Shown: positions 515 through 20,000 of the stretch, in pieces
Layout: the number at the start of each line of letters is the position of its first letter
How positions within the stretch are numbered: the stretch's first letter is position 1
Source of the DNA: an uncultured virus (IMG/VR IMGVR_UViG_3300013232_000195)
Lineage: Duplodnaviria; Heunggongvirae; Uroviricota; Caudoviricetes
Strand: one strand, 5' to 3'
DNA: 20,000 nucleotides
Virus record (IMG/VR): IMGVR_UViG_3300013232_000195
Notes under the pieces: model-generated
Seen by the model: only the letters and a program-made list of their open reading frames with translations
Told to the model about the DNA's origin: nothing
Databases searched by the model: none
Program-made: the position numbers and the translations under genes

Positions 515-552
515 GTCAACCTCCCTTTCTAATGGTCTGGGACCCGAATGGC

Positions 553-837
553 CTACTCGCCTTCGGGAAGAGGTTCTTCGTCCTCAAAATCCTCGTCAAA
601 GTCGGGTTCTTTGGGGAAGCAGTCGTCACAAATCTGACTGATGAACATCTCTCGGTCCTTGGCGGGCATGAGCGGGAAGGCGTCTTGAATGAACGCCCCA
701 TTCTCTCTGGCCTTGATTCCCACGATAGGAGCCTTGATCTCAACGGTCTTGCGACAACTCACACACATGATCTCGACGATGACGTTTTTGTCGTCACCAG
801 GAATGGCCTTGAAAGACATCGGTCTGGTCAGAAACAT
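553..837 (-). CDS. Small protein with two CxxC motifs (probable zinc ribbon) and acidic tail, 94 aa
   Basis: CVSC...CDDC; repeat at 862 and SD; stop 7 nt from the next repeat core. Confidence 0.8.
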   Translation of the reverse strand: MFLTRPMSFKAIPGDDKNVIVEIMCVSCRKTVEIKAPIVGIKARENGAFIQDAFPLMPAKDREMFISQICDDCFPKEPDFDEDFEDEEPLPEGE

Positions 838-861
838 GTTTGATCCTCCCTTTCACTTGGT

Positions 862-1254
862 CTAGGACCCGATCGCCACGCCTTCTCGCACCGCCCGCAG
901 CGTCATGGGTTGCCACCTAGACATGTCGGCGCTTTCCCCGATGCAGATGGGGTCGATATGGTCATTAACCTCGTTGGCGAACTGGTCGGCGGTCACGTCC
1001 ACGATGATCGTCCCAACGCGAACCCACCAATGGAACGGATACTTGGCGTCCTCGGGGTCGGCGTCTTCGTCGTACTGCGACATGTCGGGGTCGTCCAGAA
1101 CAAACCTCCCCCGAACAACGCGACACTTGCCACCGTCCTCGCGGATCATGTTGGCGATGTACTTGGACGCCTTAAGGCATCCGCCCTGGGGAGGATTGCC
1201 GTACTTCCGAACGATGAACTCACGCGCCTTCTTCGCAATCGCCTGTAGGTTCAT
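862..1254 (-). CDS. Transglutaminase-like/papain-fold Cys-His-Asp protein, 130 aa
   Basis: GGCLKAS...HWWVRVG.IIVDVTADQF pattern; SD AAGGGAG before ATG 1254; stop TAG supplied by the repeat (AIGS*). Confidence 0.65.
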   Translation of the reverse strand: MNLQAIAKKAREFIVRKYGNPPQGGCLKASKYIANMIREDGGKCRVVRGRFVLDDPDMSQYDEDADPEDAKYPFHWWVRVGTIIVDVTADQFANEVNDHIDPICIGESADMSRWQPMTLRAVREGVAIGS

Positions 1255-1290
1255 CGATCTTCTCCCTTCGCGCTCGCTTCTTGTCAACTC

Positions 1291-1321
1291 GCAGACTCCG
1301 CCGACGATGGGCGGAGTCTGC
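1291..1321. other. Perfect 12-bp intergenic hairpin
   Basis: GCAGACTCCGCC-N7-GGCGGAGTCTGC, no U-tract. Confidence 0.7.
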
Positions 1322-1352
1322 TGATTTACGACGACCAGAGATGCCCTTGAGT

Positions 1353-1826
1353 TTAGGGCTTCCGTATGGCTTCATCGACGGGCCTCCCGAACAACTCGTT
1401 CATGATGATCGCGTCGGGGTGATCCTTCTTGATCTTGGCCACGAACTCCGTGGTGTAGGGAACCTTCCACGTCCCGTACTGCCCCTTCTTGGCATTCGGC
1501 AACTTCCACACCAACTTGGTCTTACACCAACGCTTGATTGACTGGAGTTCCTCGTGGGATGTCACGATGTCGATCATGGCGGAGTCATAGGCCGTTCCCT
1601 CGCCCAGCGTGGGGAACTTCTTGCGCGAGTCAAAGAACGCCCGACTTTCGCGCAACTCGGCCTTAACCGCCGCAATGTCGATGTCCTTGTACCATTGCCA
1701 CTTCAAACATCCACCATTGGCTTCGTCAATGACGAACGCCACGGGCTTGCCGCTTTGCAGCAACTCCGCGTTGAACCCGTATCCTTCCATCCCACGGAAC
1801 GACTTGAACTTGCGAATGGTCAACAT
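1353..1826 (-). CDS. Hypothetical phage-type protein, 157 aa
   Basis: Repeat at 1855, SD, ATG 1826 (MLTIRKFKSFRGMEGYGF). Confidence 0.85.
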   Translation of the reverse strand: MLTIRKFKSFRGMEGYGFNAELLQSGKPVAFVIDEANGGCLKWQWYKDIDIAAVKAELRESRAFFDSRKKFPTLGEGTAYDSAMIDIVTSHEELQSIKRWCKTKLVWKLPNAKKGQYGTWKVPYTTEFVAKIKKDHPDAIIMNELFGRPVDEAIRKP

Positions 1827-1871
1827 TGTCCTTGTCCTCCCTTTCAAGGATAGGCTAGGACCCGATCGCCC

Positions 1872-2078
1872 CTACTGGAAGACGGTAGGTATTGCGGCTT
1901 GCACGCGGGCCTCCAACACCATGGCAGGGCCATTCGGACACCGCGACAATTGCTCCAGCATCCGTCTGTTGGCCCAATGTAACTCACCAATCTTCAACGT
2001 TGTGGGATCGGTAGTCAACTCGCGTTCAAGTTGATGATGGAGTTCCTGGAAGAGGATTTCGTGGTATTTGCGGGTCAC
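1872..2078 (-). CDS. Hypothetical protein, 68 aa
   Basis: GTG start overlaps the upstream TGA (GTGA), GGAGG SD; stop just before repeat 1855. Confidence 0.7.
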   Translation of the reverse strand: MTRKYHEILFQELHHQLERELTTDPTTLKIGELHWANRRMLEQLSRCPNGPAMVLEARVQAAIPTVFQ

Positions 2079-2344
2079 TTGGCCTCCTTGATGGAACAGA
2101 TGCTGAAGACGTATCCCCCGTCACGGTCGATCAAGCTGGCAGCATCCAACTTGTCCAACTCCTTGTCAGAGAAACCCGCCTCAGTGGACATCCCAGCGTA
2201 CTCGTTAAGCTCCAGGTAGGTCAATTCGCCGAAGGGCTTTGCACTTCCAGCCATGACCTTTTTGATGGCCTCGGCCTTGTCTTCAGCCTCTACGGCGTAC
2301 TTCTGGACGTGGGTTTCGTACTGCTCGACAATGAACTTAGGCAT
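2075..2344 (-). CDS. Hypothetical protein, DpnD/PcfM-like N-terminus, 89 aa
   Basis: MPKFIVEQYETHVQKYAVEAEDKAEAIKKV; repeat at 2366 and SD; resembles 8422..8607. Confidence 0.75.
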   Translation of the reverse strand: MPKFIVEQYETHVQKYAVEAEDKAEAIKKVMAGSAKPFGELTYLELNEYAGMSTEAGFSDKELDKLDAASLIDRDGGYVFSICSIKEAK

Positions 2345-2383
2345 TCTCTTGCCCTCCAAAATGGTCTGGGACCCAAATGGCCC

Positions 2384-2503
2384 TTAGATATATCCGAAGC
2401 ACCTCAAAATACACAGGACGGCAACCACGGCAAAGAGGAGTTCCTTAAGGTCCACGCTGAATGTAATCTTTTTTTCGATTCTCTTTACCTTGAAGATGAA
2501 CAT
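2384..2503 (-). CDS. 39-aa peptide with hydrophobic C-terminal half (possible membrane peptide)
   Basis: MFIFKVKRIEKKITFSVDLKELLFAVVAVLCILRCFGYI*; SD AGGAG overlaps the upstream TAG; stop next to repeat 2366. Confidence 0.6.
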   Translation of the reverse strand: MFIFKVKRIEKKITFSVDLKELLFAVVAVLCILRCFGYI

Positions 2504-2511
2504 GGCATCTC

Positions 2512-2865
2512 CTACCAGTTGAACTTAACCAGTTCCTCGCATTCCTCGCCGTCCTTGTCAAGGTTCACGGCAAAGAAGCGTTCCTTCATGGCTTGGTGAA
2601 TGAGCGTGATGAAAGCCTCACTCATGCCAGCAGCAAGGAGGTCCTTGCGGAGGTCGTCCAGCGTTCCCGCTTGCTGCGAGTCTTCCAGGGACGGGACGGA
2701 AACATAGAACCCGTACTCGTACTTGGACACCCTTAAGGGGAATGCGGGAATGGAGTTCTGGAAACACGGATCGCTGCCCGCTTCAGCATTCGCCTCAAGA
2801 ATCAGACAGTCATCACGGGTGATGTGGCACGTGGAAACATCGGCCATTTTACGTGCAGTCAGCAT
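2512..2865 (-). CDS. DUF5983-like protein, 117 aa
   Basis: DVSTCHIT...YGFYVSVP...GMSEAF...LDKDG...FNW pattern recalled for DUF5983; repeat at 2890 and SD. Confidence 0.7.
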   Translation of the reverse strand: MLTARKMADVSTCHITRDDCLILEANAEAGSDPCFQNSIPAFPLRVSKYEYGFYVSVPSLEDSQQAGTLDDLRKDLLAAGMSEAFITLIHQAMKERFFAVNLDKDGEECEELVKFNW

Positions 2866-2904
2866 TGTCTTTCCTCCCTTTGTCATGGACTGGGACCCGA
2901 TCGG

Positions 2905-3561
2905 TCATGTGTCTTTGTCCCCTCGCCGCGCCTTGGCGGCGTACTTGTCTCGTTGTTTTTCCATCTTCTTGGTTTCGGGATGGTTCGGATTCTGCTCAAC
3001 CCAAAGGTCGTGATAGGCTGTCCACCAGTTCCAGATTTCCTTCCCCTTTCGCCAAACGCTACGGATGCCATGAACACACCAGCAAATCTGCTCACCCTTT
3101 ATGTCAGCATTCGTGACGGCGCAGAAATCAGAGAGGTCGGATCCGAAGTCGTCCAAGCTTGAAATCTTGTACCTCTTGCGAGCAGACTGATACTTCTTCC
3201 CAGACATGCAGAACTTCTTGCTCTCATTGGAAACGATCTCGTCACCAACTCGGATGATCTGCTTGAGTCGGTAATCCAGAAGGTCAGTGAAATCAAGGTC
3301 TTCCAGAAACCGATCACTCTCCAGTAGCTTGGCTTCGCATTCGGCCAAGGTCAGCGGGCATTCGGATGCCGCCTTTTTCACGCTGGCTTGGAACTTTTCC
3401 TGGCTCTCGGACATGATGGCATTGAGGAAATCCGATCCAACCATGTGGTGGTCTCTGAAAACCTGGTAGAGTATAGCGACATGTACCTCGAGCTTGTCGG
3501 CGGCAGCTTGCCAACGCAACTTGCTCCGAATGCTTTTGGGAACGTATGGTTGAGTCTTCAT
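2905..3561 (-). CDS. Hypothetical protein, 218 aa
   Basis: Fills the interval between repeats 2890 and 3585. Confidence 0.8.
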   Translation of the reverse strand: MKTQPYVPKSIRSKLRWQAAADKLEVHVAILYQVFRDHHMVGSDFLNAIMSESQEKFQASVKKAASECPLTLAECEAKLLESDRFLEDLDFTDLLDYRLKQIIRVGDEIVSNESKKFCMSGKKYQSARKRYKISSLDDFGSDLSDFCAVTNADIKGEQICWCVHGIRSVWRKGKEIWNWWTAYHDLWVEQNPNHPETKKMEKQRDKYAAKARRGDKDT

Positions 3562-3595
3562 GTAGATCCCCTTTTATAAATGGTCTGGGACCCAA

Positions 3596-3865
3596 TTAGC
3601 CCCAGATCTCCTTGACCACCTTCGCAGGGGCTTCCATGAGTGTCGTGACAGTAATCTCGCCAAGCTGCTGGCCGTAGAAGTTGGGCTTCCCATTCCTTAA
3701 AGGGACCTTGATGACCTTACCCTTCTCAAGGACCACGGGGACGCAAGGATTGTATGCGTGTTGCCCGATCTCGAAAGCCTGCCCATCCCGGGCGACCAGG
3801 ACGTATCCTCGCAAGCCAAACCCATTGGTGTTGCTGGATGCCGCCACGACCTTGAACTCTTTCAT
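3596..3865 (-). CDS. Hypothetical protein, 89 aa
   Basis: Repeat at 3887, SD, ATG 3865 (MKEFKVVAASSNTNGFGL). Confidence 0.85.
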   Translation of the reverse strand: MKEFKVVAASSNTNGFGLRGYVLVARDGQAFEIGQHAYNPCVPVVLEKGKVIKVPLRNGKPNFYGQQLGEITVTTLMEAPAKVVKEIWG

Positions 3866-3897
3866 CGTTGTTCCTCCCCCAATGGTCTGGGACCCAA

Positions 3898-4134
3898 TCA
3901 ACCTCGGCAAGGGGCGAACTCGTCCGCCGCCTTGAGGTAGCCCTCAATCTCGTCGAAGCTACCAGACACAAGGATCGTCACTCCGTCGTTCTGGATGACC
4001 ATGCGGGGAGGTTCTCGACTCTCGTCCACCCTCAGAACCAAGTCGTTCTTGACTGCACGGGCCTTGAGACGTTCCCAACGGATGATCGTCCGTTCAAGGT
4101 CGGAGAGAGGCGGCAAAACGCTATTCTTGCTCAT
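3898..4134 (-). CDS. Hypothetical protein, 78 aa
   Basis: GGAGG SD; overlaps end of upstream gene; stop 2 nt from repeat 3887. Confidence 0.75.
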   Translation of the reverse strand: MSKNSVLPPLSDLERTIIRWERLKARAVKNDLVLRVDESREPPRMVIQNDGVTILVSGSFDEIEGYLKAADEFAPCRG

Positions 4135-4393
4135 CAATGTTCCTCCATTCACCAGCAGCCTTCCTCAACGCTTCGTTGCTTGGGTTGGGGCGTTCTTTCG
4201 ACAAAAACTTGTCTGCATCAAATTCTTCTTTGCCTTGCTTACGCGCCTCCATGATCTGCCGTTGACGGAATGCAACCTCGTTAGCCAGTCGGATGCATTC
4301 CATCCGCGCCTGGATCTCAGACTCCCTTGCGCGTATCCATGCATCGTGAACGTTCCTCAGACATTCCTCGTGCCAAGCCAACTTCTTTTTCAT
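4121..4393 (-). CDS. Hypothetical helical protein, 90 aa
   Basis: Repeat at 4415, SD, ATG 4393. Confidence 0.75.
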   Translation of the reverse strand: MKKKLAWHEECLRNVHDAWIRARESEIQARMECIRLANEVAFRQRQIMEARKQGKEEFDADKFLSKERPNPSNEALRKAAGEWRNIDEQE

Positions 4394-4430
4394 GGTCTGT
4401 CCTCCAAGGATCGTCTGGGACCCAAATGGA

Positions 4431-4802
4431 CTAGGCCAATTCGTCAATCTTCTTCTGCGCCCACTGTTGGGCGTCAATCCAGTAGTCCTTGCCGTTCTTG
4501 ACCACGACAGCCCCACCGCCGAACTCGTCCAGACGGGGCTTGCTGCAAGTATGCGCCCATGAGAAGGTGATGGCGTCCGTCAGCTTGAAACAGTTCTGGA
4601 ACTCACACAGAACATCGACGATCCGTTCCAAGTCCGCGTTCTCTTCGCTATTGAGCCAAACCGTTTTGTTGTCTTCCTGGATCTCAGCATCACAACTCGG
4701 GCCGAACTCACCGTCCTTGTTGAGTTCCTCAGCAAGCCATGTGGCTTGCTCCTCTGTGGCGCATTCAATCTGCGTACTGAACTGAGTGTAGTTGTTCGCC
4801 AT
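4431..4802 (-). CDS. Hypothetical protein, 123 aa
   Basis: MANNYTQFS...WAHTCSKPRLDEFGGGAVVV; bounded by repeats 4415 and 4824. Confidence 0.85.
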   Translation of the reverse strand: MANNYTQFSTQIECATEEQATWLAEELNKDGEFGPSCDAEIQEDNKTVWLNSEENADLERIVDVLCEFQNCFKLTDAITFSWAHTCSKPRLDEFGGGAVVVKNGKDYWIDAQQWAQKKIDELA

Positions 4803-4839
4803 TCAAATCTCCTTTGTCTTGGTCTGGGACCCGAACATC

Positions 4840-5655
4840 CTAGTACCGCATGGCACGTAGCCGCTTTGCCCGATCCTCCTTCGCCGTCCCCCATGCCTCC
4901 TTGGTCATGTCACCACCATACCCAGAAGCGCGGTCAGCATCGTCACGATACTCGTCCGATCCCCACAACCGCCCACCAGTCCCTCGCGTCCAGTTCACGT
5001 TGCGTAGCGCCCTCCAGAACACCCGCGCCATCGGTTCCTCATGCGCCCGATCAACCGCGTGATTGTTCTCGGACACCACCCACGTCACCACCCGCTTGTC
5101 GGCGTTAAGGTAGATGTTTCCCTCGTACCCCACGCGGAAGCTGACTGTGGCCTTGGTTGCCTTGGGGAAGTCCTTCTTCTTCGGCGCTTTTGGCCGCTTG
5201 CGGTCTGTCCACTGGTTGCCCCAGATCTTGCCTTCGGCGTCTACGCGACGGCCCATGCCGTTGTAGCATGTTCGGTTCTTCTCGGTCACCCACGCCTCAA
5301 CCCCAGTCGTGGGAGGGCAAGTATTGCCCATCACCACTTCCCTCTTGTCTTGCATGAGGGCATGGCGAACAACGTCAGACTCCAGCTTGAACCTCTCACA
5401 AAGAATCGACAAGAGCGTCCGAATTCCATCGGGACTGGTCGGCGTAAGGTTGCAGCAATGAGTCGCCAGCAACGCCTTGACCTCGGCCTTGGCGTTGTTC
5501 TTGAGAAGCCGATCCATCTCGGTCTTGACCTTCAGGGTGTCGGCGTACCGCTTCTCTTGCAACTCGTTGTAGCCAGCTATCACGGCATCCCGCAGCTTGC
5601 GGAACTCGGCGCAAGACAAATGCCATTCGCCCTTTTCCCATTCATTGCAACTCAT
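4840..5655 (-). CDS. Hypothetical protein, 271 aa (longest in window)
   Basis: Bounded by repeats 4824 and 5679; SD GGAGG. Confidence 0.85.
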   Translation of the reverse strand: MSCNEWEKGEWHLSCAEFRKLRDAVIAGYNELQEKRYADTLKVKTEMDRLLKNNAKAEVKALLATHCCNLTPTSPDGIRTLLSILCERFKLESDVVRHALMQDKREVVMGNTCPPTTGVEAWVTEKNRTCYNGMGRRVDAEGKIWGNQWTDRKRPKAPKKKDFPKATKATVSFRVGYEGNIYLNADKRVVTWVVSENNHAVDRAHEEPMARVFWRALRNVNWTRGTGGRLWGSDEYRDDADRASGYGGDMTKEAWGTAKEDRAKRLRAMRY

Positions 5656-5702
5656 GCTTGTCTTCCTCCAAAAATGGTCTGGGACCCGATCGTGTGGTTA
5701 TG

Positions 5703-5747
5703 GGGAGGCCCTGGCGCGGAGGGAGGGCCGCGCCAGGGCAGGGAGAA
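5703..5747. repeat. 45-bp GC-rich hairpin element, copy 1
   Basis: GGGAG-GCCCTGGCGCGG-N8-CCGCGCCAGGGC-AGGGAGAA; 44/45 identical to 9154-9198. Confidence 0.9.
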
Positions 5748-6347: not shown

Positions 6348-6389
6348 TTTCGTATCCTCCCTTTCCCCTAGTCTGGGACCCGAATGGCT

Positions 6390-6758: not shown

Positions 6759-6794
6759 CTTCATGTCCTCCCTTTCCAATAGTCTGGGACCCAA

Positions 6795-7037
6795 CTAGGC
6801 GCGGATCATCGCACGGGCTTCCTCGTCCCGCGCTTGCGCCTCAGTGATGTAGTAGAAGTTCACCATCGGATCGGACCATGCGGGAGCGCCCAGGTCTTCC
6901 ACGATCCCCACCGTCCGCTTCTCGTTCAGCGCCTTGTTGCAGGCGAGAACCAAGGCGAAGTCAAGGGACGGGCAATGCCGTCCTTCCACCGAGTACTTGA
7001 CGCCTTCTCCCTTGTTCATCCGCAGGAACAATGACAT
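6795..7037 (-). CDS. Hypothetical protein, 80 aa
   Basis: SD GGGAGG overlaps the upstream TAG; stop 2 nt from repeat 6784. Confidence 0.8.
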   Translation of the reverse strand: MSLFLRMNKGEGVKYSVEGRHCPSLDFALVLACNKALNEKRTVGIVEDLGAPAWSDPMVNFYYITEAQARDEEARAMIRA

Positions 7038-7347: not shown

Positions 7348-7366
7348 TGATTCCTCCCACCATAAC

Positions 7367-7594
7367 CTAGGACCCGATCGACCTACGCTTCTGGTCCGCA
7401 ATCATGGCGTCCATCAAAAGGCGGAACTTGTGGATCATCTCACATATCGTTATTGCGCCAGCGTCCAGACCACTGTTGGCTTGCTTCTCAGCCGCCTTGA
7501 CAGCCGTCTGGAACATGACGAAATCCCCACCTCCGTCCTCGCCAGTGAACACATCGACAATGCGGTCAACGTCTGGTTTCAGTTTGATCTTCAT
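7367..7594 (-). CDS. Hypothetical protein, 75 aa
   Basis: ATGA overlap with upstream gene; ends IGS* inside the repeat. Confidence 0.75.
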   Translation of the reverse strand: MKIKLKPDVDRIVDVFTGEDGGGDFVMFQTAVKAAEKQANSGLDAGAITICEMIHKFRLLMDAMIADQKRRSIGS

Positions 7595-8001: not shown

Positions 8002-8050
8002 CTCCCTATCCTCCCTTTTGGCCCAGTCATAGCCTGGGACCCGATCGATG

Positions 8051-8321: not shown

Positions 8322-8396
8322 TGGAAGCATCGGTGGGAGTCGAACCCACTTAAACCCGCTTTGCAGGCGGGTACCTGGCCGTCCAGTCCCAATGCT
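8322..8396 (-). tRNA. tRNA-Cys (GCA)
   Basis: Acceptor AGCATTG/CGATGCT, discriminator U and encoded CCA; anticodon arm CCCGC-CTGCAAA-GCGGG; T arm GTGGG-TTCGACT-CCCAC; 75 nt; D region atypical (G at position 8). Confidence 0.85.
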
Positions 8397-8421
8397 TCAA
8401 CATCCAACGTCTAGGACCCAA

Positions 8422-8607
8422 TCAGCCCTTGATCTCCTCGGTCTTCCAGTGGGTACGCTCCTCCGTACTCTCAAACTCGTCGTCGATCTCCTCGCCCATG
8501 CCGTCCGTCTGGATCGCCTCAATGGCGAGTTCCTCGTTCTTCGCCTCCACCTCGTAGGTGGTGAAGTAAATGCGCTTCTCTTGGAACTTCACTCTGAACT
8601 TGGGCAT
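8422..8607 (-). CDS. Small acidic DpnD/PcfM-like protein, 61 aa
   Basis: MPKFRVKFQEKRIYFTTYEVEAKNEELAIEAI; AAGGAG SD. Confidence 0.75.
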   Translation of the reverse strand: MPKFRVKFQEKRIYFTTYEVEAKNEELAIEAIQTDGMGEEIDDEFESTEERTHWKTEEIKG

Positions 8608-9104: not shown

Positions 9105-9153
9105 TCGTTATTTCCTCCCCTTAAAGTCTAGGACCCGATCGTTCTGGCACGAA

Positions 9154-9198
9154 GGGAGGCCCTGGCGCGGAGGGAGAGCCGCGCCAGGGCAGGGAGAA
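9154..9198. repeat. 45-bp GC-rich hairpin element, copy 2
   Basis: Near-identical to 5703-5747; also lies just upstream (gene sense) of a GGGTCC repeat. Confidence 0.9.
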
Positions 9199-9571: not shown

Positions 9572-9605
9572 CGGCGCTTTCCTCCCCTCACCGTCTGGGA
9601 CCCAA

Positions 9606-9740
9606 CTAGCCCTTGCGCTTCGGCGGCGGCAACTTGCCGTCTTCAATCAGTTTGTTCCAGGCAACCCGTTCCAGCATTTTGCCAATGTAGAAGCCAACGA
9701 AGAAATGCAGCGGACACGCGAGGATAAGTATTGTGAACAT
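9606..9740 (-). CDS. 44-aa peptide with hydrophobic N-terminus
   Basis: MFTILILACPLHFFVGFYIGKMLERVAWNKLIEDGKLPPPKRKG*; GGAGG SD; stop 2 nt from repeat 9595. Confidence 0.65.
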   Translation of the reverse strand: MFTILILACPLHFFVGFYIGKMLERVAWNKLIEDGKLPPPKRKG

Positions 9741-9949: not shown

Positions 9950-9985
9950 TCTCTTGTCCTCCCTTTCCAACAGTCTGGGACCCAA

Positions 9986-10249
9986 TCAGCCTTCCTCGCG
10001 GCATTCCTCGGACGCCCGCGCAAGGTCCAGCCGCTTCCCGTTCTCGGTCGCGATGTCGTCGAAAACCGTGAGGATCGGCGTTCCGTACTCGACCTCTAGC
10101 ACGATCGGCGTCCCGAAACCGTTCACCGAGTTGGCGTCCCCGAACCCCTTCGGGCGAATCAAGAGGGCGCCAGTCGATGCCATCTCGACCGTCACTTCCA
10201 GGTCGGGGCCACCCTTGTTGTCCTTCACCTTGAATGTCGCTGATTCCAT
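9986..10249 (-). CDS. Hypothetical protein, 87 aa
   Basis: Repeat at 10276, SD, ATG 10249. Confidence 0.8.
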   Translation of the reverse strand: MESATFKVKDNKGGPDLEVTVEMASTGALLIRPKGFGDANSVNGFGTPIVLEVEYGTPILTVFDDIATENGKRLDLARASEECREEG

Positions 10250-10296
10250 TGGCGTTTTCCTCCCTTTCCCATTGACTAGGACCCGATCGGTCGGCG

Positions 10297-10641: not shown

Positions 10642-10670
10642 CGTCTGTCCTCCCCTTACCAGTCTGGGAC

Positions 10671-10703
10671 CCGAACGGGGCGGGAATGACCCGCCCCGTT
10701 CGG
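10671..10703. other. Perfect 14-bp hairpin overlapping a repeat core
   Basis: CCGAACGGGGCGGG-AATGA-CCCGCCCCGTTCGG. Confidence 0.75.
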
Positions 10704-11248: not shown

Positions 11249-11340
11249 GGTCGTTTTCTCCCTTTGGGTTTCCCTTGCTCCCCTTCACACTCATAGACTG
11301 GGACCCGAATGCCCCCATCATCGCACGACCATTTGCCTGG

Positions 11341-11614: not shown

Positions 11615-11665
11615 CCACTCCTCCTTTCTTCGTATCCTCTTCCTTCTGGCTAGGACCCGAACGCC

Positions 11666-11938
11666 CTAGCCGATCTGAGTCACCTTACCACACTTCTGGC
11701 ACGTCCAGTGATGCTTGCTGCCAGGTTCGTCTGGGTGGTAGTTGCTTCCAGGCGATTCCTTGCAACGACACCACATGTTCTGGAAGGCGTGGTATTCCTT
11801 GAACTTCTGGATTGTAACGAGCTTCTCGCCGTTACACGTCACGCAAGTCAACTCGCCTTGCATGACCTTTCCGAACTCGTGTGAGGTGTAAGCAATCTTT
11901 CCCGTTCCCTTGCAATGAGGACAAGCGCGAGCTAGCAT
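11666..11938 (-). CDS. Cys-rich zinc-finger protein (CxxCxGxG-type repeats), 90 aa
   Basis: CPHCKGTG, CVTCNG, CRC, CQKCG; repeat at 11965 and SD. Confidence 0.85.
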   Translation of the reverse strand: MLARACPHCKGTGKIAYTSHEFGKVMQGELTCVTCNGEKLVTIQKFKEYHAFQNMWCRCKESPGSNYHPDEPGSKHHWTCQKCGKVTQIG

Positions 11939-11981
11939 TGTTTCGTTCCTCCCTTTACCTTGGACTGGGACCCGATCGCGC

Positions 11982-12227: not shown

Positions 12228-12268
12228 TGAAATGTCCTCCCTTTTCCCATAGACTGGGACCCAATCGG

Positions 12269-12400
12269 TCAGCGGTTATCGCACTCCTTCTCCTGCTTCC
12301 TGCGTCGGCGGGCCTTGCGGTTCATGAAGGTCCGTTCATACTTTTTCAATCCAGTATGCGCGGGAGAAGGATTTTTTCGGTAAGGCTTTGTCTTAGCCAT
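12269..12400 (-). CDS. 43-aa basic peptide
   Basis: MAKTKPYRKNPSPAHTGLKKYERTFMNRKARRRRKQEKECDNR*; GAGG SD; overlaps the upstream stop. Confidence 0.6.
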   Translation of the reverse strand: MAKTKPYRKNPSPAHTGLKKYERTFMNRKARRRRKQEKECDNR

Positions 12401-12566: not shown

Positions 12567-12605
12567 CGCTATTTCCTCCCACAATGGTCTGGGACCCGAA
12601 CGGGC

Positions 12606-12951: not shown

Positions 12952-13000
12952 TCGTTGGTTCCTCCCTTTCCTATAGTCTGGGACCCAATCGGTCAGGCCA

Positions 13001-13270: not shown

Positions 13271-13314
13271 TGTCGTGTTCCTCCCTTTCACATGGACAGG
13301 GACCCAATCGGCCC

Positions 13315-13605: not shown

Positions 13606-13657
13606 CTCTGGTTCCTCCCTCAATAGACAAGGACCCAATCGGCCAGGTTCAATGGCA

Positions 13658-13897: not shown

Positions 13898-13939
13898 CGG
13901 CGTATTTCCTCCCACCTCTGGACTGGGACCCGCTTGGCC

Positions 13940-14158: not shown

Positions 14159-14179
14159 CGCTGTTCCTCCCTCAATGGT

Positions 14180-14827
14180 CTAGGACCCAACTAGCTCCGC
14201 CTTTTCCATTTCCTCCCAGCATTCCCCGTTGTAGTCGCTGGGAATCTCTGGCTTGTCCACCGTCCCAAACTGCTTTGTCTTGCAACCGCAAGCCCATATC
14301 CGCCCTTCGGGGTCAACCACCATATCGGGACAAACGCAGCCCTTGTCCTCCGTCGCGCAATCCACGCCCCGCCCCACGGGATAAACCACCCGATCCGCCC
14401 CGTCCCGTATCCCTCGCATGTCGTTATTGTCCCGATCATAGCTGGGCTTGCGCTTGAACGCTTCCACGACCTTGCTATCAATCGGCTCATGGTATGAATC
14501 GGTGGACAAGTCCACCGACAACACGCCCCGCCGCGCCAATTCAGCCAGCGCTAGCGCGTCTTTCGTCCGCTTGCCGTTCGTGATGATTCCAGGCTGTCCC
14601 TCGCCGATGCTGGCAGAGGCGGACAAGGCCAGCCCCAGGAACTCCCAGAACTTGGGATGGACCGTCGGTTCGCCACCACCAAGGAAGGGCGCGGAGCCGT
14701 AGTTCTCACACAACGCCAGCGCCTTCTTGTAGGTTGACATGCCCATGTGATTCCCAGTCGTGGGGCCACACGAGTAACAGCAATGAGCGCATTCCATGTT
14801 ACAGCGTTCGGTGATCTGGATGTACAT
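14180..14827 (-). CDS. Radical SAM protein, 215 aa
   Basis: ITERCNMECAHCCYSC (CxxxCxxC), GGGEPTVHP, ITNG, and a C-terminal C..VDPEGRIWAC resembling a SPASM/Twitch remnant; stop supplied by the repeat (VGS*). Confidence 0.92.
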   Translation of the reverse strand: MYIQITERCNMECAHCCYSCGPTTGNHMGMSTYKKALALCENYGSAPFLGGGEPTVHPKFWEFLGLALSASASIGEGQPGIITNGKRTKDALALAELARRGVLSVDLSTDSYHEPIDSKVVEAFKRKPSYDRDNNDMRGIRDGADRVVYPVGRGVDCATEDKGCVCPDMVVDPEGRIWACGCKTKQFGTVDKPEIPSDYNGECWEEMEKAELVGS

Positions 14828-14891
14828 TGGCCGTCCTCCCTTTGTTCTCCCAAGGATAGCCTAGGACCCAATCGTCGTCAATACATCGCAC

Positions 14892-15389: not shown

Positions 15390-15644
15390 TCACATGGTCT
15401 GGGACCCGATCGGCTCATACGCCACCGCCACGATGTCCTCAGCCAGAAGCGCAGCGTCCTCATCCTCGCTGTCCGCTAACCGACGAATGAGAACTTGCAA
15501 CTCATCGGGGTGAACCTCGGATGTAAGCCGATGCCCATTGTCGGAGAACGTGGACCGCGTGAACCCCTCAAGACGGGAATCGATGCCTTGGTTAACGGCC
15601 TCGATGACATTCTTGCGATCTTTCCCGACAAAACTCATCTTCAT
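15390..15644 (-). CDS. Hypothetical protein, 84 aa
   Basis: Repeat at 15667 and SD; reads through the next repeat and ends IGSQTM*. Confidence 0.75.
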   Translation of the reverse strand: MKMSFVGKDRKNVIEAVNQGIDSRLEGFTRSTFSDNGHRLTSEVHPDELQVLIRRLADSEDEDAALLAEDIVAVAYEPIGSQTM

Positions 15645-15657
15645 GCTTATCTCCCTT

Positions 15658-15843
15658 TCACATAGTCTGGGACCCAATCTTCCGCATCAGCTCCAGGGTT
15701 TCTTTTTTGCTCTTGGCCAAGGCACACTCACTATGAGTTGTGAATAGCTTGGTGTAGTCGCTGGCCTTCCCGCCATACTTTTTTGCCCGTTCAGAGGCAG
15801 ACGGCACAAGCGTTATGGGCTTCCCACAAATGGTGCATTTCAT
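15658..15843 (-). CDS. Small Cys/His protein, 61 aa
   Basis: MKCTICGKP...HSEC; repeat at 15870 and SD; ends IGSQTM*. Confidence 0.75.
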   Translation of the reverse strand: MKCTICGKPITLVPSASERAKKYGGKASDYTKLFTTHSECALAKSKKETLELMRKIGSQTM

Positions 15844-16035
15844 CGGCGACATCCTCCCTTTCCCATAGACAGGGACCCAATCCCGCCAAACATTGCACCA
15901 GGCGGAGGTTTTACCCTCCGCCTGGGAGCGATTGGAAAGGAGCCAGACGGCGGTAGATACGGGGCTGAAACGAAAAACCAAGGGAAGCCCTCACGACGCC
16001 TCATCCGCTAGGCCGTTTCTTTTCCCTCGGACACT

Positions 16036-16079
16036 GGGAGAGCAAGGCGCGGGACACCTCACCGCGCCTTGCTAGGGAG
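16036..16079. repeat. GC-rich hairpin element, diverged copy 3
   Basis: GGGAG-AGCAAGGCGCGG-N9-CCGCGCCTTGCT-AGGGAG; same flanks as 5703/9154 with compensatory stem changes. Confidence 0.8.
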
Positions 16080-16082
16080 TTC

Positions 16083-16472
16083 TTACCGCTCGTTGGGGAG
16101 CATGGCGACATAGGCGGGATTGATCCCGTCAACGCTGCCCAACTCAACCCAAACCCTCACTTCATCCATCGGAAAGTCCGTGAACTCCACCTCTTGCTTG
16201 ATCTTGATGTTCCCGTTCCCGTCGTCACACGTCACGACAGCCCCGCCCTTCGCGTTCCGCTTCAACTTCCAGAACTGCATGTCCCGCAAGTCCTTGTCCT
16301 TCTTGCACTTGGGCTGGTAGCTGGCGATGATGTCCAGAAACCAGAAACACTCCGCATTCTCCGCAAGGAACCGAACCCCGTCCGTCAACAGTAGCCCCGC
16401 GAGATAGCGGGTGTAGCCTTCCGTCCCGCTGAACCCCTCAAGCGCGGCATTCAAGCAATTCGCTGGCATCAT
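16083..16472 (-). CDS. DUF6876-like protein, 129 aa
   Basis: FSGTE...LLTDGVRFLAENAECFWFLDIIAS...QFWKL...CDDGNGN...FTDFP...MLPNE pattern; repeat at 16499 and SD. Confidence 0.8.
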   Translation of the reverse strand: MMPANCLNAALEGFSGTEGYTRYLAGLLLTDGVRFLAENAECFWFLDIIASYQPKCKKDKDLRDMQFWKLKRNAKGGAVVTCDDGNGNIKIKQEVEFTDFPMDEVRVWVELGSVDGINPAYVAMLPNER

Positions 16473-16526
16473 GTTCGTCGTCCTCCCTTTCACCTAGTCT
16501 GGGACCCAATCGGCCAGGCGCTCGCA

Positions 16527-16778
16527 CTAGCTCAGTATCTTCTTGATCTCTTCGGCGTGTTCCGTGATGAAGTCCGCCACGTCGTCCTTAGACATGCCGT
16601 TATAGCCGTCGGCGTCAACCAGCGCCCGCATGGCAATCTGCCGCTGATGCGCTTCGGCGTCTTCCTTGGTGTAGAACCGCCTACCGTCCGTCGTCGTCCA
16701 ACACGGAGCGACGTCTTCCACGATCCCACTGGTATACAAATGACTCGGAATCTTCCTGGTCGTCGGTCGCTCCCTCAT
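16527..16778 (-). CDS. Hypothetical protein, 83 aa
   Basis: Repeat at 16804, SD, ATG 16778. Confidence 0.8.
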   Translation of the reverse strand: MRERPTTRKIPSHLYTSGIVEDVAPCWTTTDGRRFYTKEDAEAHQRQIAMRALVDADGYNGMSKDDVADFITEHAEEIKKILS

Positions 16779-16858
16779 CGGCGTTTCCTCCCTTTCCCTT
16801 GGGCTGGGACCCAAACGCTTCGGCGGGGGTTCAATCCTCCCGCCGTCGGCGTTTGTCT

Positions 16859-17059
16859 CTAGCTCAACGCGGCCTCCAACAGCCGCCCCAGCTTGATGCC
16901 CTTCGACGCGGCCAGCGCGTTCTTGCGAGCGGCGTTTGCTGCCGCCTTCGCTGCCGCCATTGCCTGCGCCTTGCGCTCCGCCCGACGCCTCGCGGCCAAG
17001 GCGGACGCCTTGGCCTTCTCGGTCGCGGACACGGGAACGACGACTCCGAATCTCGGCAT
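16859..17059 (-). CDS. Ala/Lys/Arg-rich basic helical protein, 66 aa
   Basis: Repeat variant at 17084, SD, ATG 17059. Confidence 0.75.
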   Translation of the reverse strand: MPRFGVVVPVSATEKAKASALAARRRAERKAQAMAAAKAAANAARKNALAASKGIKLGRLLEAALS

Positions 17060-17148
17060 GGTTGTTCCTCCCTTTCACATCGGCTCGGACCCGATCGAGG
17101 CCAGGTAGTCCGCCAGGCGACACGACGGTGCGATAATCCCATGAAGTG

Positions 17149-17182
17149 AAAAAGCAAGGCGCGGCCACACGCCGCGCCTTGC
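17149..17182 (-). terminator. Intrinsic terminator
   Basis: GCAAGGCGCGGC-N5-GCCGCGCCTTGC followed by TTTTT on the - strand, 15 nt after the stop of 17198..17716; stem related to the hairpin family. Confidence 0.75.
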
Positions 17183-17197
17183 CGCTACCCTTGCCGC

Positions 17198-17716
17198 CTA
17201 GAGGCGGTGGGTTTCGCTATCCACCCGCAGTTCCTTAATGCTTTCCAGTTTGTAGGTGAGGAAGCGGATCGGCTCATCCGTCCCTTGGTTTTTGTACTCG
17301 CTGGGCTTTTCCAGCCACGGTTCCAGCGTTTCCTTCGCCACTTCCTCGCCGTTGTCCATCACGTACCGAACCTCGGACACGTTCAGCGAGCGGAAGCGGA
17401 GGTACATCTGGCCGTTCTGCTTGTGACGGCAGAAGGGCGTCAGCGTCCCGTCAGCGCGGATGACTGGCTCATGCCAACTTTCCCCCGCGAAGAAACAACT
17501 GGCGTCCTTGCCTTCCTTCGCCAACTGGCGGAGAACCGCCCCGTCATAGTGAAAGTTGATCTGTCCGCTGATCTTGGCGATCTTGCGGACGCGGCCAGCG
17601 TAGGGATTGCCGCGCTTGCGCATCTTCGGTTCCGTTTCGGCAGTGAAACCGATGAAGGTCGCGCCCCTCTGCCCTTCCAGCAACTCGACCACTCCCGCTT
17701 CAGCCACGTTAGCCAT
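17198..17716 (-). CDS. Phage-type hypothetical protein, about 172 aa
   Basis: Repeat at 17766; AAGGGAG SD; ATG 17716 (or 17722). Confidence 0.85.
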   Translation of the reverse strand: MANVAEAGVVELLEGQRGATFIGFTAETEPKMRKRGNPYAGRVRKIAKISGQINFHYDGAVLRQLAKEGKDASCFFAGESWHEPVIRADGTLTPFCRHKQNGQMYLRFRSLNVSEVRYVMDNGEEVAKETLEPWLEKPSEYKNQGTDEPIRFLTYKLESIKELRVDSETHRL

Positions 17717-17765
17717 TGTCATTCTCCCTTTTCCGTTTCCCTTGTCTCCCCTTCACATCAACAGC

Positions 17766-18071
17766 CTAGGACCCGACTGGCCGCATGACCTCACGGATGA
17801 ATCGCACGTTGTACTTCACGCTGCCGCAAGACTGGCAAGTGTACGTCTGTCCTTTGCCAACGCCTTCCACCGTATGCCTTGTGGACATGCGGCGACAATT
17901 GCAGTAACGGTTCTCGGCAGACTCACGAGCCTCCGTTATCGCCTCCTCGGCAATTTCTTCCTCGTACTCGGCGCGGATTTCGCGGATGTCCTTAAACCGC
18001 GTGTTGCGCCCTCGCGTGGCATGAGCCATTCCCGCAGCGCGTGTTTTCGCGTTCTCTGCATGTCTGTTCAT
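17766..18071 (-). CDS. Hypothetical protein with C-terminal zinc ribbon, 101 aa
   Basis: CNC...CQSCG; repeat at 18095 and SD; ends VGS* inside the repeat. Confidence 0.8.
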   Translation of the reverse strand: MNRHAENAKTRAAGMAHATRGRNTRFKDIREIRAEYEEEIAEEAITEARESAENRYCNCRRMSTRHTVEGVGKGQTYTCQSCGSVKYNVRFIREVMRPVGS

Positions 18072-18189
18072 TTGCCATTCCTCCCACGGTCTGCCAGGGA
18101 CCCAAACGACCCCACCATCGCACCATCCAGGCTCCCGCCTGGCCCTGGCCCATTCGGGTCCGAGACTGAGAACGGGAGGAAACAAAAAC

Positions 18190-18501
18190 ATGGCAATCCT
18201 GGACGCGAATGGCAAGCCCGCCAAACTGAGGATCTATGACAACGGTGGCCAGTCGGCTGACCGATACACCGTTGTCTTCACGGGCAACTACAAGGGACGG
18301 GGAGGACGTTGTTCCTACCTCGCGATGGGTGGCTCACCGTTCCACCCGCAAGGCTTCTGCCAGCATGGGGAGCATCACACGGTCATCGACCGTCCCCAGT
18401 ACAGCCACCTTGGCAAGCCGATCAGCTTTGACGATCTGCCCGAAGACTGCAAAAGGGCCGTCTGGCAAGACTACCGCGCAATCTGGAACCTCAAGGGCTA
18501 G
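18190..18501 (+). CDS. Phage-type hypothetical protein, 103 aa
   Basis: LRIYDNGGQSADRYTVVF...HLGKPISFDDLPEDC; repeat at 18156 and SD. Confidence 0.85.
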   Translation: MAILDANGKPAKLRIYDNGGQSADRYTVVFTGNYKGRGGRCSYLAMGGSPFHPQGFCQHGEHHTVIDRPQYSHLGKPISFDDLPEDCKRAVWQDYRAIWNLKG

Positions 18502-18534
18502 TTGGGTCCCAGACCATTGGAAAGGGAGAAAACA

Positions 18535-18795
18535 ATGGCAAACGCTAAGGAAGTCGAAGCCCTCAAGGCCTTGTGGATCGCTGCCCGCGACAAAGAAGAG
18601 GAGTTGTTGGAGAAGTGGAAGGCGGCTGCGGACGATTCTGAGGAGTTCGCCAAACTCGGCGTGGCTCTCAGCAAGGCCACCGAGGACGTAGAAGAGACAC
18701 GGCGCGACTGGCTAGAGGCCAAGGCCGAAGCCAGAGCCCAGCCGACGCCAGAAGAAGAGATGGACTCCGAACCGTACGCGGATTGGGACTTCTAA
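18535..18795 (+). CDS. Acidic coiled-coil protein, 86 aa
   Basis: Repeat at 18504, SD, ATG 18535. Confidence 0.8.
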   Translation: MANAKEVEALKALWIAARDKEEELLEKWKAAADDSEEFAKLGVALSKATEDVEETRRDWLEAKAEARAQPTPEEEMDSEPYADWDF

Positions 18796-18834
18796 GACCG
18801 ATTGGGTCCCAGTCCAGAGGTGGGAGGAACGACA

Positions 18835-19041
18835 ATGGCAAGAAACGTATTCGTTCGGGACGATGCGCGAAGGACGCTGGAGTACAAGGCTCGCTGCCTC
18901 CACGGCGAGCTGCTGGACTCGGGCTGGCCCGCCAATCTCGCACCGTACGCGGCCCTCTACTACGTCGGGGCCAAGAGCATCGACTGGCTGAAGGAACACT
19001 TCAAGCCAGACGCCGTGGAATACATCTGCAAGATGCGGTGA
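18835..19041 (+). CDS. Hypothetical protein, 68 aa
   Basis: Repeat at 18804, SD, ATG 18835. Confidence 0.8.
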   Translation: MARNVFVRDDARRTLEYKARCLHGELLDSGWPANLAPYAALYYVGAKSIDWLKEHFKPDAVEYICKMR

Positions 19042-19045
19042 ATCG

Positions 19046-19167
19046 GGGCAGTAATTACCGCAAGGCGTCCCTCCGCCCCATACGGTAGGACGTGAGCGGT
19101 GGCGGTACTGATGGGGTATCGCCCACGTAATAACGCATCGACAGCGTTAGGCGTGGCAAAACTGCCC
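19046..19167 (+). ncRNA. Candidate structured RNA (multi-stem junction with kissing loops)
   Basis: Nested helices found by eye (see findings); family unknown; strand inferred from flanking genes. Confidence 0.5.
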
Positions 19168-19209
19168 AACCATTTGGGTCCCAGTCAATGTCAAAGGGAG
19201 GAACGAAAC

Positions 19210-19542
19210 ATGGCGAAGTACAAAGATAAGCTATACCGCTTGGCCGATCAGCCCACGTCTAAGGAAAGCAAGGCTCTTGGCGTACTTGACAAGCCTTGTA
19301 CGGACGACCCCTCAGTATCGCTGCCCGCTGGAATGCTTGGCAAAATCCAGCTTCGCGGGGTTCGCACTGGCGAGTACCGCGCCCCGAAGGCTGGAGAATG
19401 GTACTTGAGCGGAGCAGAGCCAGAGGCTTGGAAGGCCAGGAACGACTTGACTTCGCCCTACTACATCCTCCGCCTTGTCCGCGTCAAGACCGAGAAGGTG
19501 ACCATTACGACAATCGTGCAAGAGGTGCCAAGCAGGGACTAA
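19210..19542 (+). CDS. Hypothetical protein, 110 aa
   Basis: Repeat at 19176, SD, ATG 19210. Confidence 0.8.
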   Translation: MAKYKDKLYRLADQPTSKESKALGVLDKPCTDDPSVSLPAGMLGKIQLRGVRTGEYRAPKAGEWYLSGAEPEAWKARNDLTSPYYILRLVRVKTEKVTITTIVQEVPSRD

Positions 19543-19580
19543 GGCCAATCGGGTCCCAGTCCTAGGTAAAGGGAGGACAC

Positions 19581-19754
19581 ATGGCCAATCACATGAAACG
19601 CTGCTCGTGTCGCCATTGCGAGCGTGGGTTGCGTACCAAAGCTGGCGGAGAGGTAGCCCGTCAGGCCGTACGCAAGGCCCGCCGCATGGCCAAGGTCGCG
19701 CTCAAGAACGGTGCTGAGCCGTCCCCCGTCTTCTCCATGCACTACACGGACTGA
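19581..19754 (+). CDS. 57-aa basic Cys-containing peptide
   Basis: MANHMKRCSCRHCERGLRTK...HYTD*; repeat at 19551 and AAAGGGAGG; stop 7 nt before the last repeat. Confidence 0.75.
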   Translation: MANHMKRCSCRHCERGLRTKAGGEVARQAVRKARRMAKVALKNGAEPSPVFSMHYTD

Positions 19755-20000
19755 AGCGATTGGGTCCCAGACATAAGACGTGAGAGGTTTAGCCAGAGGA
19801 AGGGTAGGCGCGGTGGCCATTGTGGTCCCCCTACCCTTCCTCCTCCCAATACCTATAACCACTCGGACGATCTAGCACCCAGCCCCAGCCAGGTAGGACG
19901 CCAGGCAGTACCCAGGAGAGGGTATATGCCATAGAGGCGTTGCTATAACCTATAAGTACTAATAACATTTAGAATAAAAATAAAACATCATGCACAAAAC

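Follow-up and report, generated by a model that had tools for sequence, protein, structure and literature searches.

In T4-type phages, repeated promoter cassettes known as promoter-early stem-loop (PeSL) elements lie among ORFans, and the published accounts place the ends of gene exchange, loss and gain at these repeats (PMC2839356, PMC4122927). Phage-encoded RNA polymerases, in turn, read promoter words of their own. The promoter of the Syn5 single-subunit polymerase is described as a 15-bp sequence, ATTGGGCACCCGTAA, with transcription starting at the next base (PMC3950665), and the account of Thermus phage P23-45 reports motif-defined promoter sets for two phage polymerases, virion and non-virion, counting 14 start sites with an AT-rich motif and 7 with a GC-rich one, together with a conserved 26-nt motif at seven termination sites (PMC10770324). 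The locus analyzed here is a stretch of 20,000 nt from an uncultured virus of the Caudoviricetes (IMG/VR record IMGVR_UViG_3300013232_000195; hereafter, the window), along which a short motif with a GGGTCC core recurs ahead of nearly every small gene or group of coupled genes. We suggest that this motif is probably a promoter specific to the phage, repeated to form a dense array, and that the RNA polymerase or sigma factor that reads it would be encoded beyond the window.

The hexamer GGGTCC occurs 45 times in the window, 39 times on the minus strand (cores 540 to 18098) and six times on the plus strand (18156 to 19762), compared with a mean of 15.5 and a maximum of 27 in 200 dinucleotide-preserving shuffles, and the mean distance between copies is about 437 nt. 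When positions are counted from the first core G as 0, each copy being read in its own orientation, every one of the 45 cores proves to lie in the same oriented motif of about 22 nt, GGCCgaTYGGGTCCYAGWCYAT (-8 to +13), which is asymmetric and holds about 25 bits of information. Conservation extends beyond the core to the T at -2 (44/45), the A at +7 (41/45), the G at +8 (45/45) and the C at +10 (44/45). The first-pass annotation of this DNA had reported 45 copies in a one-motif-per-unit layout, and both the count and the layout are borne out. Its consensus proved too strict, since the exact first part, (A/T)TYGGGTCCYAGWC, matches 27 of the 45 copies, whereas a looser form, TYGGGTCC....C, matches 43. 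Similarly, the quasi-palindrome that it read in the core, TGGG-T-CCCA, is incomplete, with T at -1 in 23 copies and C at +6 in 32. Once the copies are masked, the remaining 18,560 bases contain no further GGGTCC on either strand, versus 12.6 +/- 3.4 in shuffles. The repeat is real and far above chance, and its core is actively avoided elsewhere; such avoidance on both strands would be expected if the site is recognized in double-stranded DNA. The word appears to be undescribed. Full-text searches of the phage literature returned no paper with it, primer matches aside; megablast of the whole window found no nucleotide relatives in 50,697 deposited phage genomes, and blastn of a 49-nt motif unit against the same genomes gave six chance matches only. 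A scan of a genome collection yielded 47 loci with a single match each, a pattern that argues against host-wide use of the word. Of the motif scans of IMG/VR, one returned nothing and the others at least 120 loci and 16 loci, with one match per listed row; the IMG/VR loci fetched held at most four loose motif-like matches each, and those in DNA of 67-72% G+C were taken as chance.

The motif is conserved as nucleic acid and is bound to the gene that follows it. For 43 of the 45 copies this is a protein gene. Its start codon lies 26-58 nt past the first core G, a range that narrows to 28-35 nt for 36 of these copies, whereas the stop of the upstream gene is far less fixed, ranging from -54 to +15. 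Contrary to the order of stop and then motif given earlier, the upstream reading frame enters the motif in 16 copies, with its stop at -5, +6, +11 or +15, and these overlaps indicate that the constraint acts on the nucleic acid. Upstream frames end in this way within the copies at 15394..15415 (-; core 15402; gene 14892-15374, start codon at +33), where the protein tail reads ...IGSQTM*, and 15662..15683 (-; core 15670; gene 15390-15644, +31); the copy at 14175..14196 (-; core 14183; gene 13940-14158, +30) lies within the 3' end of a radical SAM gene. As had been claimed, the motif shares the orientation of what follows in 45 of 45 cases, and it flips with gene direction at 18.1 kb. Behind it, a Shine-Dalgarno-like word is present in 43 copies (GGGAGG in 33 and AAAGGGAGG, the second part of the earlier consensus, in 21). 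This word begins 13-27 nt past the first core G, with +20 as the commonest position (20 copies), followed by +17/+18 (11 copies), a tighter spacing than the 6-12 nt gap formerly assigned to it. The gene list holds about 56 small genes, of which some 12 lack a motif copy of their own and overlap or abut the preceding gene. Pairs of genes follow the copies at 4410..4431 (-; core 4418; overlapping pair 4121-4393 / 3898-4134, +30), 8029..8050 (-; core 8037; 7591-8001 / 7367-7594, +41), 9970..9991 (-; core 9978; 9746-9949 / 9606-9740, +34) and 12973..12994 (-; core 12981; 12742-12951 / 12606-12752, +35).

A few copies are particularly informative. That at 8406..8427 (-; core 8414) precedes a tRNA-Cys gene (GCA, with CCA encoded; 8322..8396, -; Rfam 40.3 bits and ARAGORN), the 5' end of which lies 23 nt past the first core G with no ribosome site between; a motif copy in this position points to a signal at the level of transcription, not of translation. 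A relative from run X3 retains both this copy, with Y-to-Y changes only, and the tRNA-Cys, without the next gene downstream (8051-8308), and it has a 10-nt insert that, on the strand of the gene, gives a GGTGCTA box. The copies at 18090..18111 (-; core 18098) and 18148..18169 (+; core 18156; gene 18190-18501, +34) form a back-to-back pair, spaced by 52 nt, where two divergent arms begin, and neither has a gene upstream. Within the minus arm, an intrinsic terminator at 17153..17183 (-), made of a 13-bp stem with 10 G-C pairs and a run of TTTTT, directly follows gene 17198-17716. The copy at 17079..17100 (-; core 17087; gene 16859-17059, +33) is the only conserved element that separates it from the next gene, so that, unless the motif acts as a promoter, the genes below this strong terminator would have none. 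The window shows no enrichment of sigma-70-type promoters (4 versus 7.4 +/- 3.1 expected), with none in the motif and none at the divergent point.

The same organization is found, with other words, in related DNA. In 23,167 bases examined of a 42.9-kb metagenome contig (hereafter, the relative), 38 copies of TGATCGGGTCCYWGNC again lie ahead of small genes, with C at +10 in 37 of the 38 and the ribosome site at the same distance as in the window. A back-to-back pair (cores 4174 on the minus strand and 4227 on the plus strand) again marks the point where two arms diverge, and the core is again avoided outside the motif, GGGTCC occurring there 5 times on both strands versus 16.2 +/- 3.9 expected. 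The window itself uses WTYGGGTCCYAGWCYAT, shared by contig L040, which is 85% identical to window positions 16305-17476, and a third form, AAGCGGGTCCTYGAC, is present in two overlapping short contigs (L016 and L072) and in contig L005. These are genome-specific dialects, with a GGGTCC core common to all three, flanks that differ and a layout that does not change. Homologues of 11 of the 56 window genes are found in the 23 kb of the relative, in broadly the same order save for two local swaps; the conserved scaffold is thin, then, and the variable cargo large, with each unit bearing a copy in the dialect of its own genome.

A second element accompanies some of the copies. GTGC is found within -30 to -9 of the core in 16 of 45, and 7 of the 11 GTGCGA words of the window lie at -20 to -22 in motif orientation. 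They belong to the copy with core 18098 (box at -20) and to those at 857..878 (-; core 865; gene 553-837, +33; box at -21), 6779..6800 (-; core 6787; gene 6390-6758; -22), 11293..11314 (-; core 11301; gene 10712-11248; -20), 12249..12270 (-; core 12257; gene 11982-12227, +35; -22), 14856..14877 (-; core 14864; radical SAM gene 14180-14827, +42; -22) and 16494..16515 (-; core 16502; DUF6876 gene 16083-16472, +35; -20). The two other dialects have a corresponding box: GGTGC at -19 to -27 in about a third of the copies of the relative, and GGCTGCC at -21 to -24 in 4 of 8 copies of the third dialect.

Of the three mechanisms put forward by the first-pass annotation, a promoter for an element-encoded factor provides the best fit. 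The reader would be an RNA polymerase, or a sigma-like factor that confers specificity on the host polymerase. Encoded or delivered by the phage from outside the window, it would bind the double-stranded motif through the invariant GGGTCC core and the C at +10, assisted in about a third of the copies by the upstream GTGC(G/C)A box some 20-22 nt before the core. Transcription would start about 12-16 nt past the first core G, as suggested by the end of conservation at +13 and by the 23 nt available ahead of the tRNA. The resulting leader would be very short, consisting of the ribosome site only or, for the tRNA, of 7-11 nt. Nearly each gene or coupled pair would thus have its own start signal, and a few units would be closed by stem-loop terminators. 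Relative to such a start, GGGTCC would lie roughly at -13 to -8 and the GTGC box at about -33 to -35, a geometry that would fit a two-box promoter of sigma type, in which the upstream box is dispensable, and, equally, the 15-23-bp one-piece promoters of single-subunit phage polymerases. A block of about 40 nt, comprising the presumed promoter and the ribosome site, recurs every 430 nt or so, and ordinary homologous or short-homology recombination between blocks would delete, insert and reorder units, giving the array its cassette-like look.

Several points weigh against a promoter array. We infer initiation at the motif, the position of the start and the existence of a reader from the DNA sequence, and neither a polymerase, nor a sigma factor, nor any other candidate reader was found among 50 window proteins searched with Pfam and PHROGs or among the 28 larger open reading frames (ORFs) in the 23 kb of the relative. 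Forty-five promoters in 20 kb, with few terminators, are far denser than those of T7-like phages and would be expected to yield heavily nested transcripts. Only about one copy in three has the upstream box, and the box stands at varying distances from the core, mostly -19 to -27 and overall -14 to -33, a looser spacing than that of a classical -35/-10 pair. Some 25 bits exceed what is needed to locate 45 sites, and part of the conservation could reflect recent copying from repeat to repeat. The likeness of the motif to the Syn5 promoter is reduced to GGG..CC in the other two dialects. Finally, the last copies of the window (19754..19775, +; core 19762) and of the relative (core 2415) have no recognizable gene behind them, which would suit a gene-end signal equally well.

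The copy with core 19762, which closes the plus arm, is followed by neither a reading frame nor a ribosome site, and together with the tRNA copy it limits the earlier statement that a start codon follows the motif each time to 43 of the 45 copies. Behind it come a 12-bp-stem hairpin and then AT-rich DNA, and an Rfam search there gave nothing credible, the tRNA being the only match in the window. A sequence-specific termination signal for a phage polymerase, comparable to the 26-nt motif in the account of P23-45 (PMC10770324), could explain why all copies but the first of each arm directly follow a gene, and why the last plus-strand copy and its counterpart in the relative come after the last gene with none beyond. 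We nonetheless regard it as very unlikely: it is the distance to the downstream start, and not that to the upstream stop, that is tight, each arm opens in both phages with a copy that has no gene before it, and several copies have a separate hairpin terminator upstream. As to the segment from 19776 to 20000, it contains no ORF, a hairpin with the 12-bp stem at about 19790-19846 and an abrupt change to AT-rich composition from about 19940; it can be aligned in the run X3 relative with indels that are not multiples of three, and it could represent a small RNA, the boundary of a module or the end of the genome.

The constant distance to the ribosome site also admits a role in RNA, with the motif acting within long polycistronic transcripts either as a point where an endoribonuclease cuts to release individual messages or, beside the ribosome site, as an enhancer or operator of translation. 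Its location between a stop and a ribosome site suits this idea, and in several single-copy folds the core UCCC can pair with the ribosome-site GGGA 13 nt downstream; speculatively, read-through transcripts containing the core might then mask the next ribosome site, whereas transcripts started at the motif would not. Yet the copy before the tRNA has no ribosome site to act upon, and there is nothing upstream to transcribe the first copy of each arm. The core is missing from the antisense strand too, which is not required of an RNA signal, and the strong terminator inside the minus arm argues against a single long transcript. Nor is there a common fold: 8 of the 10 copies folded gave z > 0, no better than shuffles, and the invariant T at +3 has a presumed partner, at +9, that varies without compensating change, so that covariation is absent. 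An RNA-level signal is accordingly improbable, and the mRNA processing site previously listed as a third mechanism fits poorly, given the antisense avoidance and the head-to-head copies.

An operator array, in which the copies bind a phage regulator (an elongation-blocking, stoperator-like repressor, or an activator) and the real promoters are few, is the likeliest of these alternatives and is still unlikely. The stoperators of cluster A mycobacteriophages are asymmetric repressor sites that lie in one orientation relative to transcription and block elongation, in temperate phages that encode the repressor. A short asymmetric site, found in short intergenic gaps in a single orientation relative to transcription and avoided elsewhere on both strands, would suit such an array, and the back-to-back copies 18098 and 18156 could sit over divergent promoters. 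Stoperators share the orientation rule (45/45 here) but are far sparser and not locked to start codons, and neither one site per 437 nt or so nor the lock to ribosome site and start codon is needed for a roadblock. Moreover, the terminator at 17153-17183 demands re-initiation below it, the divergent point lacks a sigma-70-type promoter and the window shows no excess of them, and the Pfam and PHROG searches of the window revealed no repressor, integrase or other sign of a temperate phage.

Promoters that recur in every unit would also provide homology for exchange, and the first-pass annotation had proposed that relatives be compared for gain, loss or reordering of genes with breakpoints at the motif. 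This comparison gave a positive result. Contigs from four DNA runs were aligned to the window at 80% likeness, and 24 of the 42 endpoints of 21 placeable joints (15 recorded as table 5 of the analysis and six as table 5c) fall within -15 to +40 of a core, a zone that amounts to 12.6% of the window. Caution is in order, for six of the 15 table-5 joints have only 21-34 letters on the shorter side and may reflect a motif of the contig placed on a different copy, and the 18180/18764 joint pair arose because the aligner picked another repeat copy; when only the nine joints whose shorter side has 93 letters or more are counted, the zone contains 9 of 18 endpoints. Five large events all terminate at unit boundaries. 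In a near-identical strain from run X1, gene 13315-13605 is missing exactly, motif to motif (13291->13623), with the joint at +14/+13 of the copies at 13292..13313 (-; core 13300; gene 13001-13270, +35), a unit-deletion breakpoint in relatives, and 13623..13644 (-; core 13631; gene 13315-13605, +31). In run X3, two units are missing (13270->13921), with a breakpoint at the copy 13918..13939 (-; core 13926; gene 13658-13897, +34), and the remaining events are 16455->16775, 8884->13273 and 8047->8318, in the last of which the gene after the tRNA is missing. Contig L016 carries a gene 88% identical at the protein level to 13001-13270 and bordered by window-type motifs, amid third-dialect neighbors in changed order, and contig L005 has the homologues of 10712-11248 and 12742-12951 side by side, with their order reversed. 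Relatives thus gain, lose and reorder single gene units, with breakpoints at or beside the motif.

These observations are also those that would favor a dedicated recombination site, the target of a recombinase that moves one-gene cassettes in the manner of an integron with a much shorter site. There is one site per unit, relatives differ by whole units (as in runs X1 and X3), 9 of the 18 endpoints of the nine joints just named fall in the zone around the cores, and contig L016 combines a window-type gene and its motifs with units of another dialect. The motif has no inverted arms, hairpin or central spacer of the kind that recombinase sites have, and no recombinase was found in the window or among the 28 larger ORFs in the 23 kb of the relative. 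The crossover points are spread between -12 and +37 relative to the core, some of them at start codons, as expected of exchange driven by homology, and such a site would leave both the fixed distance to the start codon and the tRNA copy unexplained. The published PeSL precedent (PMC2839356, PMC4122927) adds to these grounds, and the undescribed cassette system with a compact recombination site that the first-pass annotation had favored is, in our judgment, a most improbable explanation. We see only a slim chance that the motif has a dual function, as promoter of an unknown phage transcription system and as preferred crossover point of an active, phage-encoded exchange mechanism, the corollary of which would be self-expressing gene cassettes moved between co-infecting phages, even across dialects, by way of one-motif circles.

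Stem-loops accompany a minority of the copies. Upstream 76-nt segments fold below the 5th percentile of the background in 6 of 45 cases, versus about 2.3 expected. A 45-nt hairpin element with an 11-bp G+C stem (5703..5747, -) lies immediately upstream of the copy at 5674..5695 (-; core 5682; gene 4840-5655, +32), and a second copy of this element, 98% identical (9154..9198, -), immediately upstream of the one at 9123..9144 (-; core 9131; triple 8889-9104 / 8610-8885 / 8422-8607, +32); both are in probably non-coding stretches, as ORF 9121-9270 looks spurious. Other hairpins abut the 5' side of the copy at 10659..10680 (-; core 10667; gene 10297-10641, +31), with a 15-bp stem and -40.6 kcal/mol, overlap the 5' flank of that at 12584..12605 (-; core 12592; pair 12393-12566 / 12269-12400, +31), or lie upstream of those at 15865..15886 (-; core 15873; zinc-ribbon gene 15658-15843, +35; -37 kcal/mol) and 16799..16820 (-; core 16807; gene 16527-16778, +34). 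An N4-type hairpin promoter was ruled out, as no stem is conserved, and Chi-like sites were ruled out by the lock of the copies to gene starts.

The remaining copies on the minus strand precede single genes. They are located at 532..553 (core 540-545; gene 269-514, ATG at +31), 1850..1871 (core 1858; 1353-1826, +37), 2361..2382 (core 2369; 2075-2344, +30), 2885..2906 (core 2893; 2512-2865, DUF5983, +33), 3580..3601 (core 3588; 2905-3561, +32), 3882..3903 (core 3890; 3596-3865, +30), 4819..4840 (core 4827; 4431-4802, +30), 6368..6389 (core 6376; 5748-6347, +34) and 7362..7383 (core 7370; 7048-7347, +28), and, past the tRNA, at 9590..9611 (core 9598; 9284-9571, +32), 10271..10292 (core 10279; 9986-10249, +35), 11645..11666 (core 11653; ORF 11468-11614, +44), 11960..11981 (core 11968; 11666-11938, +35) and 17761..17782 (core 17769; conserved gene 17198-17716). 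The plus arm continues with copies at 18496..18517 (core 18504; 18535-18795, +31), 18796..18817 (core 18804; 18835-19041, +31), 19168..19189 (core 19176; 19210-19542, +34) and 19543..19564 (core 19551; 19581-19754, +30). Genes 10712-11248 and 17198-17716 share an unusual trait, a 58-nt leader (located at 11250-11300 and 17718-17768, -) with three ribosome-site-like blocks, GAAGGGGAG / CAAGGGAAAC / AAAGGGAGA; the homologue of 17198-17716 in the relative has an ordinary short leader.

The cargo consists, as previously described, mostly of unrelated small genes. A Pfam family could be named for 5 of 50 window proteins (DUF5983, a DnaJ-type zinc finger that is weak and below cut-off, radical SAM and DUF6876), and 11 of 50 matched PHROGs, mostly of unknown function. 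Homologues of the 61-residue zinc-ribbon protein (15658-15843) occur in 124 phage records, of which many come from very large phages, and those of the 103-residue protein of gene 18190-18501 occur in Rhodococcus and Caulobacter phages; a 271-residue protein had no match in the protein atlas. The best conserved gene of the region, 17198-17716, adjoins the divergence point, has a strong terminator of its own and encodes a 172-residue protein with 65% identity to that of the relative. In the protein atlas its structural neighbors are viral hypothetical proteins, and it belongs with 27 metagenome protein clusters, none of them named. An IMG/VR protein scan found nothing for the pair of 172-residue proteins and only enzymes 25-32% identical for the radical SAM pair. 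CCGG is counted 4 times on both strands of the window, versus about 179 expected under a second-order model, and GTGC/GCAC and CCWGG-related words are also low; in the relative, CCGG occurs 42 times versus 179 and AGCT 40 versus 144, and the scarcity of CCGG looks like restriction-site avoidance. The sequence was found in small shares in five DNA runs from lake and freshwater metagenomes, and we take the window for part of a small-gene region (the "ORFanage"), accessory or early in role, of a freshwater phage that is uncultured and probably large. Because DUF6876 is known as a plasmid family, the leading region of a conjugative plasmid was considered as well; it was ruled out by the PHROG matches, the phage-wide zinc-ribbon gene, the tRNA gene and the near-absence of CCGG.

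If the motif is indeed a promoter, it would constitute a recognition code in uncultured freshwater phages, made of an invariant GGGTCC, lineage-specific flanks and an optional upstream box, with one signal per gene, a density that recalls giant viruses more than classical phages. Knowing the word would enable the early or accessory genes of such phages to be found in metagenomes, together with the matching polymerase, and the array would provide a clean natural example of how repeated regulatory words create a zone of gene swapping.

Among described systems, integron arrays are similar in general layout, in that each small gene, seemingly without a promoter, has one co-oriented site, the cargo is unrelated, and units are gained and lost one by one. 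Their attC sites are imperfect-palindrome hairpins of 57-141 nt, whereas the block of the window is 22 nt long, asymmetric and without flanking inverted arms, and in contrast to integron sites it lies upstream of the accompanying gene and is locked to its start. Their GTTRRRY ends, already reported as absent, have no tie to the motif either: the 37 occurrences on both strands of the window (about 39 expected) include 11 within 40 nt of a core, versus 6.7 expected. No integron-type recombinase was identified by Pfam in the 50 window proteins or in the 28 ORFs of the relative, and the array does not match an integron. The start-associated sequences of cluster K mycobacteriophages are likewise short oriented repeats near gene starts, but they occupy the place of the ribosome site a few bases ahead of the start codon. 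The array is not of this type, as 43 of the 45 motif copies are followed by a GGAGG-type site distinct from the motif and another copy stands before a tRNA gene. A palindrome of 17 bp reported from cluster O mycobacteriophages (PMC4351075) is unrelated in sequence and symmetry.

An array of similar design with an entirely different word came to light through the 172-residue protein. A 27-sequence profile of this protein recovered four IMG/VR loci with distant homologues (28-44% identity), the only loci found there with a relationship to the window, and none of them has the GGGTCC motif. Two of them (L290 and L291) have ordinary genes and no array. In the other two (L292 and L293, from IMG/VR records of 494 and 371 kb), ACTAAACTTYC followed by GCGCA occurs in 31 copies within 14 kb of the locus, and in the 494-kb record the homologue, 28% identical, lies inside this one-word-per-gene array. 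The word is found in that whole record 39 times forward and once in reverse, concentrated in a 25-kb array at 302-327 kb, 20-40 nt before small genes. Three Sigma70_r2 matches are located elsewhere in the record; PF00940 had no match in it, and the control search for this family matched nowhere either. As in the window, dozens of co-oriented, lineage-specific words precede small genes, and this record, with its array and its Sigma70_r2 matches, offers an analogy only to the proposed promoter array of the window.

In function, the closest systems are the promoter sets of phage polymerases, each a contiguous, asymmetric, highly conserved and lineage-specific word of 15-23 bp right upstream of the start, with dialects that differ from one relative to another. 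The motif of the window has such a contiguous, asymmetric consensus (-8 to +13, about 25 bits), next to a start that we would place from its anatomy. The Syn5 promoter, as given in its description, begins with ATTGGG, and many window copies share ATTGGG..CCC..G with it, a likeness to which we give little weight because it fades in the other dialects. Syn5, P23-45 and T7-type phages have 3-20 such promoters per genome, compared with 45 in 20 kb here, with both strands in use and an upstream box in a third of the copies. In evolutionary behavior, the closest counterparts are PeSL elements, described as repeats amid small, non-essential ORFans at which indels and replacements end, some of them with stem-loops. 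PeSLs are reported to be strong sigma-70-like promoters for the host polymerase, whereas the motif of the window has no sigma-70 consensus, is far denser, at one per gene, and has a stem-loop at only some 6-8 of 45 copies. The array is not a PeSL member, lacking the sigma-70 promoter and, mostly, the stem-loop. Phage-specific promoter arrays whose repeats double as recombination points are already known. What sets this locus apart is a signal for each gene or coupled group, a 6-base core maintained across three dialects, an optional upstream box, and the presence or absence of single units between near-identical strains.

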